64,000 nucleotides of DNA from Octopus vulgaris (lineage: Eukaryota): contig OX597814.1 of the NCBI GenBank assembly GCA_951406725.2, positions 195,052,001 to 195,116,000 on the forward strand, in the 5' to 3' direction. The number at the start of each line of letters is the position of its first letter. Positions within the stretch are counted from its first letter, which is position 1. The notes beneath the pieces were generated by a model. It worked only from the letters and a program-made list of their open reading frames with translations, searched no databases and was not told the origin of the DNA. Made by a program: the position numbers and the translations under genes. Positions 1-63,540 of the stretch are shown in pieces.

Positions 1-89
1 TGTGTGTATTATATAATATATCGTCTGTAAATCCTAAATCCGAAAAAGAAGCACAAAGCTATAGAGCAGTAGAGTATATAGATATGGCC

Positions 90-162
90 GGTCTATGGGG
101 TTACCCTGAATTTCACGTCCATAAAGCGCTTAGCTTTACAGTGTCTCTTCAGACCTTAGGCC
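90..162 (-). ncRNA. Degenerate type-I hammerhead ribozyme in inverted pseudo-LTR of Penelope-like element
   Basis: Minus strand: AGGT-CTGAAGA-[stem II TGTAAAGC/GCTTTATG]-GAAA-TTCAGGG-TA|ACCC. A mirror copy of the stem-I/CTGAAGA part lies on + at ~190-223 (fold-back). Confidence 0.6.
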
Positions 163-318
163 TATGGCTTCTCTAGAAAAGAGAGGCCACTTGCTAGAGA
201 GGTCATAGGCCTAAGGTCTGAAGAAACTAGGGCTCGCAAAAAAACCGATAATTCCCAAAACCGAGTTCAATTATAAGTAATTCTCAAAACCGGTTAAAAA
301 CTGGTTTCCGCGGGTACT

Positions 319-465: not shown

Positions 466-559
466 TGTGCGGATGCGCGAATACGCGAGTGCGCGCACCG
501 GGATCACTCTTCTTAAATAGTACCCGAATTCTTTAGAGATTTCAAATCCATTTGTTACC

Positions 560-1256
560 ATCTTGGGCTCTTCAGACAGGATCAGGGCGTACAAAGGAGC
601 CATGGCAAAATTAAAGATCATCATAGAGAATGATGCAAATGGGATCTGTCTGCCATACAGGAGCAAATCATGGAATAGCATAAAAAGAACTAAGATGAAG
701 ATAGTTAAAGCCAACTCATGGTATGACAACCAAAAAATACCAGAGTGTTATGTTTGTCGATGCTATTCCTGGAGGCGAACTAGTGTATCATTTTAGAAAA
801 GCCTCAGGTAAAATGAATCTACGGATTAAAGTTGTACAAAGGCCAGGAACTCTCTTAAAATCCCTGATCTGTAGAACATATTCATTTGAAAGAACCCTCT
901 GTATGAATAGGAACTGTATAGTGTGTAGAGAAAGCCCACGGGTAAACTGTAAAACTAAGACTGTAGTCTATAATATAAGGTTTACAGAGGGAGGGTGCAG
1001 AAAAAAGACAACGACGTACATTGAAGAAACAGTTCATAGCGTAAGTGAGAGGATAGGGGAGCACTGGCGGGAACACAAGGAGGAAATAAGCTCGTCAGTG
1101 CTATACCAACATGCTAAATTAGAACACGGGGGCACGGTAGATAACACAGTCGTTAGGATCTTGTCGACACATGGGAACAGACACAACACTCAGAAAGATT
1201 ACAGAAGCTTCACACACAATAGAAAAATGACCGTGCCTCAACAGAAAACGTGAATA
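560..1256 (+). pseudogene. 5'-truncated, frameshifted Penelope-like element ORF (RT C-terminal linker + GIY-YIG endonuclease)
   Basis: ORF 723-1253 has a Cys-rich linker (CMNRNCIVC..NC), VVYNI..C..YIEET..SVSERIGEH and LYQHAKLEH, typical of PLE GIY-YIG. Frameshifts near 725 and 1180; the alternative frame gives LRKITEAS..PCLNRKRE. Confidence 0.85.
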
Positions 1257-7083: not shown

Positions 7084-7120
7084 TATGTATGTATGAACGT
7101 ATGTGTGTGTGTGTGTGTGC

Positions 7121-7532
7121 GGCGAGCTGGCAGAATCGTTAGCACGTCGGGCGAAATGCTTAGCGGTATTTCGTGTGCCGTTACGCTCTGGGTTCAAATT
7201 CCGCCGAGGTCGACTTTGCCTTTCATCCTTTCGGGGTCGATAAATTAAGTACCAGTTTCGCACTGGGGTCGATGTAATCGACTTAATCCGTTTGTCTGTC
7301 CTTGTTTGTCCCCTCTATGTTTAGCCCCTTGTGGGTAGTAAAGAAATAGGTATTTCGTGTGCTGTTATGTTCTGAGTTCAAATTCCGTCGAGGTCGACTT
7401 TGCCTTTCATCCTTTCGGGGTCGATAAATTTAGTACCAGTTACGCACTGGGGTCGATATAATCGACTTAATCCGTTTGTCTGTCCTTGTTTGTCCCCTCT
7501 GTGTTTAGCCCCTTGTGGGCAATAAAGAAATA
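7121..7532 (+). mobile_element. SINE family A dimer (head + 2 body units)
   Basis: Body repeats after the junction GAAATAGGTATTTC (~7343-7356). Confidence 0.85.
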
Positions 7533-7894
7533 AGTATGTGTGTGTGTGTGCATGTGCGTGCGGTGTATGTATGAATGTATGTATGTACATGTGCGTGTGT
7601 GTGTGTATGTTAGAATGTATGTACGTGTGAGTCTGTGCGTATGGATGTTACAGAATTTTCTGGAAAAGAATAAAAGGGTAATAAGTAAAGAGCATAAGAA
7701 AACAGATAAATAACAAAAACTGACCTTAGGTCGTGACAGTAGGTTCTTGGTTTGAAACGATCGTGGTAAAATGTCTTTTTTGCCCTCAATACATATGTAT
7801 GTATATTTGTGTGTCTCTCTGGTCAAGTGAGTTGACCAGATAGAAAGGCTAAAATTATAAGAACGAGATTTTTTTTTTGTTTTGACAAAGCCAA

Positions 7895-9337: not shown

Positions 9338-9421
<84 letters not shown>

Positions 9422-9514
9422 GGTAAGACAACAAAAGAATGAAAGAGACCTCGATATTATGTAAATAGAGGAATTTTTCTGTAAAAATATATGTGACAAT
9501 TATTCGGTAGCCAT

Positions 9515-9575
9515 GATAAAACTCCGAGTTTCGGATGTCGGGGCGGAAACCCACGCCGGCATCTCTTCAGTTATC
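9515..9575 (-). ncRNA. Type-I hammerhead ribozyme (mirror of 9634-9694)
   Basis: Reverse complement reads GATAA-CTGAAGA-GATG..CATCC-GAAA-CTCGGAG-TT|TTATC. Confidence 0.75.
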
Positions 9576-9633
9576 GGGCCATCGAAAAAGATGCTCTCTA
9601 ATCATTTATTGTTGCTCATTTTTCCGATGGCCG

Positions 9634-9694
9634 GATAACTGAAGAGATGCCGGCGTGGGTTTCCGCCCCGACATCCGAAACTCGGAGTTTTATC
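9634..9694 (+). ncRNA. Type-I hammerhead ribozyme
   Basis: Stem I GATAA/TTATC; CTGAAGA 9639-9645; stem II GATG..GTGG-GTTT-CCGC..CATC; GAAA 9677-9680; near-palindromic stem III CTCGGAG; GUU site after 9689. Confidence 0.75.
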
Positions 9695-9731
9695 ATGGCT
9701 ACCGAATAATTGTCACACATTATATTTACAG

Positions 9732-9849
<118 letters not shown>

Positions 9850-23439: not shown

Positions 23440-23502
<63 letters not shown>

Positions 23503-23505
23503 ATG

Positions 23506-23547
<42 letters not shown>

Positions 23548-23863
23548 ATCTGTAAATGTAATATCTGACATTCGGTAGCCATGGTAAAACTCCGAGTTTC
23601 GGATGCTGAGGTGGAAATCCACGCTGCCATCTCTTCAGTTATCCGGCTATCGGAAAAATGCTATGAAAAATGGGGTCATTTCTCATAGCATTTTCCCGAT
23701 GGCCGGATAACTGAAGAGATGGCAGCGTGGATTTCCACCTCAGCATCCGAAACTCGGAGTTTTACCATGGCTACCGAAAAATTGTCTCATATTACATTTA
23801 CAGATAAATTCCTCTATTTTCATAATATCGAGGTCTCTTTCATTCTTTTGTTGTCTTACCATT
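23548..23863 (+). mobile_element. Palindromic double-hammerhead element, copy 2
   Basis: Hammerheads at 23583-23643(-) and 23706-23766(+); tail 23780-23863 matches 9418-9491; embedded in (TA)n. Confidence 0.8.
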
Positions 23864-24338
23864 CTTATCAATATATATATATATATGTATACGTACATGC
23901 TTACATATATACATACATGTGTGTGTGTGTGTGTAATCCATGTCTTTGGTTGCAAGATAACTGCACATGTTTGGCTCATGATCATGACACTAACCACTTT
24001 CGAAGATTAAGCCGGATTTTCTGCTTAACCAAGAGTGCCACTTGATTGAAATCTGGATAAAGCAGATTAGGAATAATCACGAAACGTTCTATTGGCCAGG
24101 TTTCTTGTTGTTTTTGTTGTTTTCATTGACCTGCAGAGAGAACTTGAATGAAACCATTGGCATAATATTGGTGAAGGCGTAGGAGTGGCTGTGTGGTAAG
24201 TAGCTTGCTTACGAACCACATAGTTCCGGGTTCAGTCCTACTGCATGGCACCTTAGGCAGGTGTCCTCTACTATAACCTCGGGCCGACCAAAGCCTTGTG
24301 AGTGGATTTGGTAGACGGAAACTGAAAGAAGCCCGTCG

Positions 24339-31399: not shown

Positions 31400-31725
31400 T
31401 ACATTCACTCTCTGCATGCAATTAGACTCGGAAAGTTCATGAGGAACCCATTGACCCAATTTGCTGACTTTTCCGATAGCACACAGGTGTCAATGAATGG
31501 TTGAATGACCAAATCCAAGCTTCTCTGCTAGTTCCTCAACAGTTACGATGATATTTTGTTCCACCAGGGTTTTCAGGATGTCCTTGTCGAGTTCTACAGA
31601 TCTTTCCGGATGAGGCTCGTCTTCTAGGCTGTAGTTTATGGCTCGGGATTTCTGGAACCACCATTGACACTGCCTTACGCTTATTGTCCAATCCCCATAT
31701 ACTGCATTAATATTTCTTGTACTTT
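31400..31725 (-). pseudogene. Mariner transposase N-terminal (HTH) remnant
   Basis: INAVYGDWTISVRQCQWWFQK..SLEDEPHPER..TVEELAEKLGFGHSTIH. Confidence 0.85.
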
Positions 31726-32038
31726 GCACACATTTATATTCTGTTATTCTTTTATATGTTTCAGCCTTGAGGTTGTGGCCATGCTGGATCATGTGTGTGT
31801 GTGTGTGTGTCTATCTGTCTGTCTGTCTGTATGTATATATGTATATGTATGTGTGTGAACAATAATATTTTCAACAGATGTGTTGCAAATGTATCTGATT
31901 GTTCTCAAGCTTCAATACTGTGTGTGTGTGTATGTGTGTGTGTGTATGTATGTATGTATATGTATGTATGTATGTATATGTATGTATGTATGTATGTGTG
32001 TATGTATGTATGTGTGTGTGTATGTATGTGTGTGTGTA

Positions 32039-39700: not shown

Positions 39701-40244
39701 TAATATCTGAAGACTATTTCTTTATAATGCAACACTAATGAAGTCATTTCGTGGTTTCAAAGTATATCAGGGTAGAGACAGACCAAGCTTCATCCAAATC
39801 GATGTACTGAACTATTATCAACATCGAGAGAGCGTTTTTGCATCTGGTTTGGAAGATTCTTTATTGACACAACAAAATCGAGAGAGCAGAGTTCCAGTTT
39901 CGATTCCTCTGGTGCGGCATTTCGGATGTCTTCTTTCAAATATATTAGAAAGTAAGCTTGCACTGGTCAGAATGTTACCGTTAGTTTCGTACCGACTATT
40001 GGACTTGACAATGCTAGTTTCAAATTTTGGTACGAAATCTGCAATTTCGGGGAAGGGGATAAGTCAGTTACATCCACCCCAGTACTCAACTTATAGTGTC
40101 AACCCCGTGAGGAAGAAAAGCAAAGTCGACCTCGGTGGAATTTGAACTCAAAATGTAAAGACGGACGAAATGTTGCTAAGCATTTCGCCCGGTGTGTTAA
40201 CGTTTCTGCCAGCTCGCCGCCTTAAGACATATTGAAGGTATTCT

Positions 40245-41272
40245 CTTCTACTCTAGGCACAAGGCCTGAAATTTTGGGGGAGGGAGCCAGTCGATTAGAT
40301 CGGCCACAGTGCGCAATTGGTACTTAATTTATCGACCCCGAAAAGATGAAAAGCAAAGTCGACCTCGGCAGAATTTGAACTCAGAACGTAAAGACAGACG
40401 AAATACCTATTTCTTTACTACCCACACGGGGCTAAACATAGAGGAGACAAACAAGGACAGACAAACGGATTAAGTCGATTATATCGACCCCAGTGCATAA
40501 CTGGTACTTACTTTATCGACCCCGAAAGGATGAAAGGCAAAGTCGACCTCGGCGGAATTTGAACTCTGAACATAAAGACAGACGAAATATCGCTAAGCAT
40601 TTCGCCTGTCGTGCTAACAACTCTGCTAATTCACCGTCTTTACATTCTTCAAAGGCGGCGAGCTGGCAGAAATGTTAGCACGTCGGGCGAAATGCTTAGC
40701 GGTATTTCGTCTGCCGCTACGTTCTGAGTTCAAATTCTGCCGAGGTCGACTTTGCCTTTCATCCTTTCGGGGTCGATTAAATAAGTACCATTTACGCATT
40801 GGGGTCGATATAATCGACTTAATCCGTGTGTCTGTCATTGTTTGTCTTCTCTGTGTTTAGCCCCTTGTGGGTAGTAAAGAAATAGGTATTTCGTCTGCCG
40901 CTACGTTCTGAGTTCAAATTCCGCCGAGTTCGACATTGCCTTTCATTCTTTCGGGGTCGATTAAATAAGTGCCATTTATGCATTGGGGTCGATCTATTCG
41001 ACTTAATCCGTTTGTCTGTCCTTGTTTGTCCCCTAGAGCCCCTTGTGCCACTTGTGGGCAGTAAAGAAATAAGAAACGTTAGCACGCCGGGCGAAATGCT
41101 TAGCGGTATTTCGTCTGTTATTGCGTTCTGAGTTCAAATTCCTCCGAGGTCTACTTAGCCTTTCATCCCTTCGGGGTTGATAAATTAAGTACCAGTTGCG
41201 TACTGGGATCGATCTAATCGACTGGCTCCCTCCCTACAAATTTCGGACGTTGTGCCTAAAGTAGAAAAGAAT
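40245..41272. mobile_element. Head-to-head family A SINE multimers
   Basis: Minus-strand multimer ends at ~40640; plus-strand multimer starts at 40652. Confidence 0.85.
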
Positions 41273-45943: not shown

Positions 45944-45974
<31 letters not shown>

Positions 45975-46156
45975 CAACAATCAAGGAACGGCCATAATAG
46001 GCCATTCACCCACTAGAAATAACAGCCAATATTTCAGATATTTTCACGAGGCCTTTCCGACCTTGCCAAGTTTATATCTGACCTAAAATTTTCAAATCGA
46101 TATAAACTTGGCAAGGTCGGAAATGCCTCGTGAAAATATCTGTTCCGACTTGGGCT

Positions 46157-46262
46157 ATTTCTTACTGAAGAATCTGAGGGCCTGTGGTAGATTGGCTTGA
46201 TTAAATTAATCAGGTTAGTTTACCATTAATCAGCAGATGAAACGGTATATCGTATAAGAAAT
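46157..46262 (+). ncRNA. Type-I hammerhead ribozyme, copy 1
   Basis: Stem I ATTTCTTA/TAAGAAAT (8 bp); CTGAAGA 46165-46171; stem II ATCTG/CAGAT with a long hairpin insert; GAAA 46239-46242; stem III CGGTATATCG; GUA site after 46254. Confidence 0.85.
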
Positions 46263-46648
46263 TACAGGGTAAATGTTTTTTAAATTTTCTCCTGGTTTAC
46301 GGAATTAACTTTTATTTGCGGTTGAAGCTTTGGCTGTTATTTCTAGTGGGTGAATGGCCTATTATGGCCGTTCCTTGATTGTTGATGTTGAACTTAAAAA
46401 TGGTCTATGACTATTTAATTTTTTCCTACTAGGCCGCTGGTGGCAAAAGAATTCTACAAAATTTTTTTTTGCCACCCTATATTGATTAATTATGAATTTT
46501 CTGGTTAATTCCGTAATGGAATCGACGGCTTATATTTATTTGCTGCCGATAAATTTGGCGCGAGTGCGACGATTTGAAAATTTTAGGTCAGATATAAACT
46601 TGGCAAGGTCGGAAATGCCTCGTGAAAATATCTGTTCCGACTTGGGCT

Positions 46649-46755
46649 ATTTCTTACTGAAGAATCTGAGGGCCTGTGGAAGATTGGCTTGATTTAATTT
46701 AATCAGGTTAGTTTACCATTAATCAGCAGATGAAACGGTATATCGTATAAGAAAT
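46649..46755 (+). ncRNA. Type-I hammerhead ribozyme, copy 2
   Basis: Same core and stems; CTGAAGA 46657-46663; GAAA 46732-46735; GUA site after 46747. Confidence 0.85.
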
Positions 46756-46983
46756 TACAGGGTAAATGTTTTTTAAATTTTCTCCTGGTTTACGGAATTA
46801 ACTTTTATTTGCGGTTGAAGCTTTGGCTGTTATTTCTAGTGGGTGAATGGCCTATTATGGCCGTTCCTTGATTGTTGATGTTGAACTTAAAAATGGTCTA
46901 TGACTATTTAATTTTTTCCTACTAGGCCGCTGGTGGCAAAAGAATTCTACAAAATTTTTTTTTGCCACCCTATATTGATTAAT

Positions 46984-47016
<33 letters not shown>

Positions 47017-59287: not shown

Positions 59288-60255
59288 TATTTCTTTACTG
59301 TCCACAGAGGGCTAAACACAGAGGGGACAAACAAGGACAGACAACCGATTAAGTCGATTATATCGACCTCAGTGCGTAACTGGTACTTAATTTATCGACC
59401 CCCGAAAGGATGAAAGGCAAAGTCGACCTCGGCGGAATTTGAACTCAGAACGTAGCGGCAGACGAAATACCTATTTCTTTACTACCCACAAGGAGCTAAA
59501 CACAGAGAGGGCAAACAAGGACAGACAAACGGATTAAGTCGATTATATCGACCCCAGTGCGTAACTGGTACTTATTTAATCGACCCCGAAAGGATGAAAG
59601 GTAAAGTCGACCTCGGCGGAATTTGAACTCAGAACGTAGCGGCAGACGAAATACCTATTTCTTTAATACCCACAAGGAGCTAAACACAGAGAAGGCAAAC
59701 ACGGACAGACAAACAGATTAAGTCGATTATATCGACCCCAGTGCGTAACTGGTACTTATTTAATCGACCTCGAAAGGATGAAAGGCAAAGTCGACCCCGG
59801 CGGAATTTGAACTCAGAACGTAACAGCAGACGAAATACATATTTCTTTACTACCCACAAGAGGCTAAACACAGAGAGGACAAACAAGGACAGACAAACGG
59901 ATTAAGTCGATTATATCGACCCCAGTGCGTAACTGGTACTTATTTAATCGACCTCGAAAGGATGAAAGGCAAAGTCGACCCCGGCGGAATTTGAACTCAG
60001 AACGTAACAGCAGACGAAATACATATTTCTTTACTACCCACAAGAGGCTAAACACAGAGAGGACAAACAAGGACAGACAAACGGTTTAAGTCGATTATAT
60101 CGACCCCAGTGTGTAACTGGTACTTATTTAATCGATCCCGAAAAGATGAAAGGCAAAGTCGACCTCGGCGGAATTTGAACTCAGAACGCAACGGCAGACG
60201 AAATACCGCTAAACATTTCGCCCAGCCTGCTAACGTTTCTACCAGCTCGCCGCCT
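59288..60255 (-). mobile_element. SINE family A pentamer (head + 5 x ~184-bp body)
   Basis: Junctions at ~59464, 59648, 59832 and 60016; a single TSD TTTCTCCTGTAT flanks the array. Confidence 0.9.
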
Positions 60256-63123: not shown

Positions 63124-63540
63124 TATTTCTTTACTGCCCACGAGGAGCTACTCACAGAGGGGACAAACAAGGACAGACTAATGGATCAAGTCGATTATAT
63201 CGATCCCAGTGCGTAACTGGTACTTATTTAATCGACCCCGAAAAGATGAAAGGCAAAGTCGACCTCGGCGAAATTTGAACTCAGAACGTAGCGGCTGACG
63301 AAATGCCTATTTCGTTACTACCCACAAGGGGCTAAACACAGAGGGGACAAACAAGGACAGACATAGGTATTAAGTCGATTACACCGACCCCAGTGCGTAA
63401 TTGGTACTTAATTAATCGACCCCGAAAGGATGAAAGGCAAAGTGGACCTCGGCGGAATTTGAACTCAGAACGTAACGGCAGACGAAATACCGCTAAGCAT
63501 CTCGCCCGGCTTGCTAACGTTTCTACCAGCTCGCTGCCTT
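63124..63540 (-). mobile_element. SINE family A dimer with TSD
   Basis: TSD GTAGGTTTCTTATT on both sides. Confidence 0.88.

Follow-up and report, generated by a model that had tools for sequence, protein, structure and literature searches.

The window analysed here comprises 64,000 nt of Octopus vulgaris DNA (assembly GCA_951406725.2, contig OX597814.1, positions 195,052,001 to 195,116,000 of the forward strand), and all coordinates are counted from its first nucleotide. The interval at 23548-23863 had been described in an earlier note, made from the sequence alone, as the second copy of a palindrome. Folding bore this out: arms at 23548-23672 and 23677-23805, separated by a 4-nt loop, form a near-perfect hairpin of -223 kcal/mol (z = -31), a stability reached by 0 of 100 shuffled sequences. 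The palindrome does not fill the interval, however, as the final 58 nt constitute an unpaired tail that had been overlooked and that makes the element asymmetric. When the interval was used as a BLAST query against the window, the sole further copy was found at 9419-9733 on the minus strand, in agreement with the note's designation of the interval as a second copy; we refer to the element at 9419-9733 as copy 1 and to that at 23548-23863 as copy 2. The arms are ~125 nt long and each carries a type I hammerhead ribozyme (HHR) motif, while the tail is attached to the direct arm only and is identical at 57 of 58 nt between the copies. Read in the sense of the HHR, both loci follow the order microsatellite, inverted arm, junction, direct arm, tail, microsatellite. 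The outer ends of each palindrome are 3' ends of the element, both facing outward and each abutting a microsatellite, and one of them reaches 58 nt beyond the other by virtue of the tail. The centres differ between the copies, as the note had stated: copy 2 has 12 additional paired nt and its 4-nt loop, and copy 1 has a 23-nt unpaired loop. None of four comparisons indicated homology between the two loops (best alignment p = 0.09), and the fold-back points lie only 12 nt apart. The features of the window that bear on these elements are listed in Table 1.

Table 1. Coordinates of the palindromic elements, their flanks and the other HHR- or Penelope-related sequences in the window.
Feature	Position	Strand	Remarks
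Copy 2, left flank	23444-23547		(TG)n(TATG)n(TA)n
Copy 2, inverted tail-less arm	23548-23672	-	HHR core CTGAAGA at 23638-23632; 3' end abuts (TA)n
Copy 2, loop (head-to-head junction)	23673-23676		4 nt
Copy 2, direct arm	23677-23805	+	
Copy 2, direct-arm type I HHR motif	23698-23775	+	core 23711-23717; GAAA 23749-23752
Copy 2, direct-arm HHR stem II	23718-23748	+	
Copy 2, direct-arm HHR stem III	23752-23760	+	palindromic
Copy 2, tail	23806-23863	+	58 nt, direct arm only; 57/58 identical to copy 1
Copy 2, right flank	23864-23886		7 nt without counterpart in copy 1, then (AT)n
Copy 1, right half of probable target-site duplication	9341-9418	-	(TC)n(TA)n array
Copy 1, tail	9419-9476	-	
Copy 1, direct arm	9478-9593	-	HHR core 9570-9564
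Copy 1, unpaired loop	9594-9616		23 nt
Copy 1, tail-less arm	9617-9733	+	HHR core 9639-9645; stem I intact
Copy 1, left half of probable target-site duplication	9743-9846	-	(TC)n(TA)n array
Separate HHR family, same anatomy	45973-46985	+	(TA)n on both sides; ~106-nt tail
Third, decayed HHR-like element	22-227	-	core 152-146; GAAA 114-111; ends at (AT)n
Broken Penelope-like coding remnant	554-1254	+	reverse transcriptase thumb end and GIY-YIG endonuclease, in three frames

Both copies are inserted at (TA)n. Copy 1 is probably flanked by a target-site duplication, because (TC)n(TA)n arrays lie on both sides of it in the same orientation and are the only two such arrays in the window; 4 nt are common to the end of its tail and the target. 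Copy 2 lies between (TA)n stretches but lacks a clear target-site duplication, so that a duplication is seen at one of the two loci. In both copies an (AT)3-AAAT interruption adjoins the tail-less arm (23538-23549 and 9732-9745) ahead of the (AT)n, and the same interruption is found at 1 of the 70 other array ends in the window. This common end is a side-specific shared trait, attributable either to stutter of the reverse transcriptase (RT) at initiation or to shared descent.

All four arms contain the core CUGANGA, GAAA, NUH and stems I-III in type I order, and in the direct arm of copy 2 the cut is predicted after U23761. A descriptor scan of the window returned the four arms and two further sites, on a background of zero to one match per window (one match in 20 and one in 30 shuffled windows); Rfam searches with the whole window and with one arm gave no hammerhead match, only sub-threshold matches to microsatellites and hairpins. 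The four arms do not differ in the core or in stem III, and stem I of copy 2 carries an A23707-C23765 mismatch, both as previously reported. Stem III is a 9-nt palindrome unable to close fully on itself, with a self-duplex of -9.7 kcal/mol in the dimer form. The minimum free energy folds of single arms (-22 and -28 kcal/mol, against -223 and -212 kcal/mol for the full hairpins) differ from the active HHR fold. Among the features given for HHRs of the Penelope-like element (PLE) type (PMC4209133), the G10.1-C11.1 pair and the palindromic helix/loop III are present, but the additional unpaired base, other than G, that is described between positions 9 and 10.1 is not: here a G directly follows A9 and a bulged C lies on the 3' side. 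Several Hydra-clade HHRs likewise have a G after A9 (PMC8557442).

The base changes that the earlier note had named in stem II between copies 1 and 2 (GG..CC to AG..CT, and GTGG/CCGC to GTGG/CCAC) are present, but the covariation with retained pairing that it had read from them does not survive folding. In copy 1 the GG..CC pairing has a probability of ~0.01, and stem II prefers a CGG/CCG register (-14.2 versus -9.7 kcal/mol, a gap of 4.5 kcal/mol). Two of the three pairs of this register are broken in copy 2, whose best stem II (-8.9 kcal/mol) is 5.3 kcal/mol weaker than that of copy 1. In the note's own register, changes on both sides occur at only 1 of 24 pairs, a score equalled or exceeded by 74 of 500 shuffles, and five of the seven stem II differences lie outside that pair. 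When seven substitutions were placed at random within the 22 nt of distal stem II, 46-47% of 5000 trials left a stem at least as stable as that of copy 2, as did 813 of the 2187 substitution combinations at the observed positions. The distribution of the changes is nonetheless far from even, with seven differences in the 22 nt of distal stem II versus three in the remaining 153 nt of arm and tail (Fisher p = 2e-5). Selection on structure is supported only by where the changes fall and not by covariation. Copy 2 looks decayed rather than compensated, since CpA stands in place of a CpG of copy 1 at three of the seven stem II differences and its stem I carries a mismatch. ADAR-type editing was considered as the source of the variants, four of the nine being unpolarised A/G differences, and was set aside, as the CpG context fits decay equally well.

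Alignment of the four arms over 120 columns yielded nine copy-specific columns, in which both arms of a copy share the variant, and no side-specific or crossed column. The copy tree was preferred among the four-arm trees, and the two others were rejected (p-AU = 0.00015 for the side tree and 0.00012 for the other alternative). The arms of one locus thus stem from one sequence variant, as expected in the earlier note, which had proposed a test of whether arms cluster by locus; this holds for the two loci available, and the opposite arrangement, left versus right arms with a fixed breakpoint as in an ordinary TIR or MITE family, is rejected for these two copies. The accompanying statement that the arms of each copy carry the same variants is correct for the nine copy-specific columns but not throughout, as 13 changes private to one arm lie near the arm ends. 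These private changes fall within ~27 nt of the ends, and the central 73 columns out of 116 are free of them (P = 1e-5, post hoc). Changes are also more frequent at the arm ends than in the adjoining tail (13 in 172 versus 1 in 116; p = 0.01, post hoc).

A separate HHR family with the same anatomy is present at 45973-46985, where its units, which repeat every 492 nt in a partial tandem, carry HHRs at 46165 and 46657 and differ from one another at three sites, all in distal stem II. This family has the head-to-tail tandem organisation with HHRs that characterises retrozymes, and BLAST found no head-to-tail tandem units of the palindrome family in the window. The inverted 5' piece of the 45973 family (45973-46100) lacks 188 nt that contain the HHR, and 5 nt of filler sequence stand at the point of the jump. 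The loop of this family consists of additional upstream template on the tail-less arm, joined with an overlap of 1 nt, which indicates that two truncated copies meet at the centre. A third element at the left edge of the window, missed by both HHR scans and the weaker case for an HHR element, has a short inverted duplicate at ~194-227 and stands head-to-head with the PLE coding remnant. The remnant retains conserved cysteines and histidines and has no Pfam match of its own. An HMMER search with it gave 567 relatives at E up to 0.001, and among 11 of these that were scanned one GIY-YIG and one RVT_1 match were obtained, both below the curated cut-offs; a word-based search with the endonuclease remnant retained 0 of 132 candidates. 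Read against PMC8557442, its cysteine and histidine motifs fit the Neptune/Nematis type, so that it is probably not the partner of the palindrome family; no matching HHR lies downstream of it. Homology among the three HHR families was not significant (p = 0.25-0.63).

Several smaller observations were made in the window. The 9-mer ATTTACAGA lies at the (AT)n-joined end of both the palindrome family and the third element, at 22-32 (minus strand), 9724-9733, 23548-23557 and 23796-23805; with five occurrences in the window, one of them at an unrelated site (32360), it is a lead only. Between the third element and the remnant, 316-468 contains a 27-nt inverted pair (316-342 and 442-468) and a 24-nt direct pair (342-365 and 403-426) and is possibly a separate small insertion. 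An abundant repeat with an internal tandem unit of 184 nt, which we take to resemble an octopus SINE, is found in both orientations at 59288-60253 and ~20 other sites (e.g. 7119-7537, 40224-41034 and 63124-63540), and two of these repeats, at 40018-41267, together make up a large inverted repeat whose arms are 9 nt apart.

No parent element with an RT or endonuclease that shares the end of the palindrome family was found within the window, and neither stub contains an RT plus GIY-YIG ORF. Of 177 complex stop-to-stop frames of at least 70 aa, the 150 longest were compared with Pfam; no RT or GIY-YIG was obtained, and only a Mos1 HTH passed its cut-off. This Mos1-type transposase HTH (PF17906, E = 4e-7), at 31493-31810 on the minus strand, marks a mariner remnant. 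In copy 2 an open frame of 48 codons (23719-23874, plus strand) has its ATG at the base of stem II. As a candidate PLE N-terminus it was rejected, with 0 of 7 candidates scored in a weak search and a stop in copy 1.

We consider it probable that the palindromes arose by insertion of short, 5'-truncated pieces of a PLE, or of a non-autonomous derivative of one, each together with an inverted copy. Inverted 5'-truncated copies, a tail of 30-40 bp and a bias towards microsatellites are typical PLE features (PMC8557442), and new PLE insertions in an alga have a median length of 128 bp (PMC9977147). The palindromes present an inverted copy whose 5' truncation is presumed, no longer member having been seen, and a tail at one end that measures 58 nt in both copies and is thus longer than those published. 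This origin is further supported by the grouping of arms by copy, the stem III self-duplex, the probable target-site duplication at copy 1, the junction of truncated copies at the centre of the 45973 family, the hairpin energies relative to single arms and the PLE coding remnant in the same window. It is weakened by the length of the tail, the proximity of the fold-back points, the common (AT)3-AAAT end and the number of copies, which is two, as well as by the missing parent element, the failure of Rfam to match an HHR and the uneven private changes. That these changes avoid the mid-arm is unexplained and is not predicted by an origin as PLE stubs. PLE membership itself is well supported by structure rather than proved by a parent ORF. 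The head-to-head architecture is already known for PLEs.

Under the mechanism that we propose, a PLE endonuclease acting in trans would nick both strands at a (TA)n-containing site, and the RT would begin on uncut RNA at two fixed positions, an arrangement that would set the tail, and copy only ~130-190 nt, through the HHR; the two short products would then be joined head-to-head. Cutting and extension of both strands by a PLE protein have been shown in vitro, where the protein used two RNA start sites bounding the tail and accepted uncut RNA as substrate (PMC11167929). The second arm could be primed from the other target strand, as in twin priming, or copied from the first cDNA after fold-back, and by either route the inversion would be new at each insertion. 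How PLEs make inverted copies is still called open (PMC8557442), and self-priming was put forward as a hypothesis where an inverted pLTR and a tail were described (PMC3846280). We slightly favour a second arm of the twin-priming type because of the target-primed geometry at both ends and the in vitro extension of both strands. The earlier suggestion that the inversion is made anew at each insertion accordingly remains the best reading of the two copies, given the clustering of arms by locus and the published behaviour of PLEs. The source elements of copies 1 and 2 would already have differed from each other in the unconstrained distal portion of stem II while retaining core, stem III and tail. 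The HHR in the source RNA would act as a dimer through its palindromic stem III; dimer-type PLE HHRs, highly variable, have been described, as have opposite-strand HHR pairs 100-700 bp apart (PMC4209133). Read-through RNA of an inserted palindrome would form a long double-stranded hairpin hiding the ribozyme, and is not expected to cut itself, since the hairpin outweighs the single-arm folds in the predicted energies. A more specific scenario is possible but doubtful, in which the arms are separate target-primed cDNAs with telomerase-like stutter at the inner site, arm-to-arm repair keeps the mid-arm identical while the ends mutate faster than the tail, and the family is a non-autonomous PLE of very small size that bears an HHR and is regularly inserted as a dsRNA-forming hairpin.

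An unlikely alternative is that a PLE-derived palindrome was copied whole from palindromic sources, for example from a read-through RNA of the antisense strand on which priming took place at the (AU)n end, with the arms homogenised in each lineage. The fixed outer ends, the 12-nt spacing of the fold-back points, the near-identical tails and the (AT)3-AAAT shared by both tail-less ends would all be accommodated, and an antisense template has been proposed for PLEs (PMC3846280). Copying of the whole unit is nevertheless difficult to reconcile with loops that cannot be aligned while the tails are 98% identical and with the lack of side-specific columns inside the arms, and fixed RT start sites predict fixed 3' ends equally well. 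Homogenisation within the hairpin, which the earlier note had offered as its second explanation, would mean that gene conversion or hairpin repair carried post-insertion mutations from one arm to the other in the mid-arm but not at the ends. It fits the mid-arm, where private changes are lacking, as well as the CpG-like decay of three of seven stem II changes and the destabilised copy 2. At the edge rate of 7.6%, conversion predicts ~11 shared core changes and eight were seen (post hoc). The same rate applied to the unpaired tails predicts ~9 differences, whereas one was observed (P = 0.0015, post hoc), and seven of the eight core changes are concentrated in 22 of the 73 central columns (p = 0.0007, post hoc), unlike neutral change. 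As the sole cause, conversion is thus at odds with the near-unchanged tail and the clustering in distal stem II, and we regard it as rather improbable.

Identity of the mid-arms could in part be an artefact of assembly or polishing, in which reads of the two arms were merged and errors gathered at the hairpin ends. An identical middle with differences within ~27 nt of the ends is what merging of arms would be expected to produce, and the microsatellite flanks anchor reads poorly. The same pattern occurs at two loci, however, the unmerged edge zone contains one copy-specific and no side-specific column, and an artefact would create neither the tail, the HHR nor the target-site duplication, so that we attach little probability to this explanation. 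An ordinary TIR element (MITE or foldback) at TA sites, to which the long inverted arms and (TA)n flanks might point, is disfavoured and very improbable in view of the one-sided 58-nt tail, an HHR in each arm, the different centres, arms that group by locus and not by side as symmetric TIRs would, and a long microsatellite duplication at copy 1 in place of a 2-bp one.

If the palindromes are PLE stubs, short palindromes with subfamily-specific stem II variants offer a direct test of the PLE inversion route: fold-back copying would always give arms identical at birth, and priming on two RNAs would sometimes give arms from two subfamilies. Their main value lies in the genome-wide test that they make possible. 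Our literature search, with most subscription journals outside its reach, found no paper on the palindrome family or on a test of arm against copy. Such stubs are easily mistaken in annotation for MITEs or microRNA precursors, and any transcripts of them would yield double-stranded RNA of 115-125 bp.

Among known systems, L1 twin priming produces an inversion at insertion, with both target strands priming and the products joined at microhomology. It inverts a non-overlapping part of the element, in contrast to the palindromes, which duplicate the same part in inverted form. The palindrome family resembles Hydra-clade EN+ PLEs (Craig et al. 2021, PMC8557442), such as Hydra-2_aMil and Penelope-16_HM, in the shape of its HHR alone as far as clade assignment is concerned: a type I HHR near the 3' end is shared, with a U cut site, a (TA)n target and a 9-nt palindromic stem III. 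In the Hydra-clade table of that paper, which covers 25 elements, a 9-nt stem-loop III occurs in 19, the stem III actc-g-gagt, exactly that of the palindrome family, in two, and a cut after U in 10; (TA)n is preferred by 26 of the 27 Hydra families listed, and Penelope-13_HM carries an inverted 5'-truncated copy comparable to ours (PMC8557442). The palindromes differ from the published members in having no ORF, a whole element of ~315 nt, a 58-nt tail, near-equal arms, and a stem II that is longer and contains an internal loop and a bulged C. The HHR of Hydra-1_oBim likewise opens ctgaagag-atg, and its last bases resemble the arm end by eye, but its stems I and II differ, so that it is not the same family (PMC8557442). 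A short end motif built on the Hydra-1_oBim end matched only the two arms of copy 2 and, being post hoc, was given no weight.

Penelope/Poseidon elements (Adineta vaga Pen2a, PMC3846280; Anolis PAc, PMC11167929) share with the palindromes a head-to-head inverted repeat shorter than the direct one, a one-sided tail and an AT-rich target. They are full-length or ORF-bearing, with tails of 30-40 nt and duplications of 8-10 bp, whereas only stubs are present here. Non-LTR retrozymes, which are tandem units tied to PLE ends (PMC7229834; bioRxiv 10.64898/2026.07.22.740005), are likewise non-coding and share the type I HHR, the weak palindromic helix III and an origin from PLE ends. Their units are arranged head-to-tail, in contrast to the palindrome family, which occurs in the window only as head-to-head single units; it is the 492-nt tandem at 45973-46985 that fits the retrozyme description.
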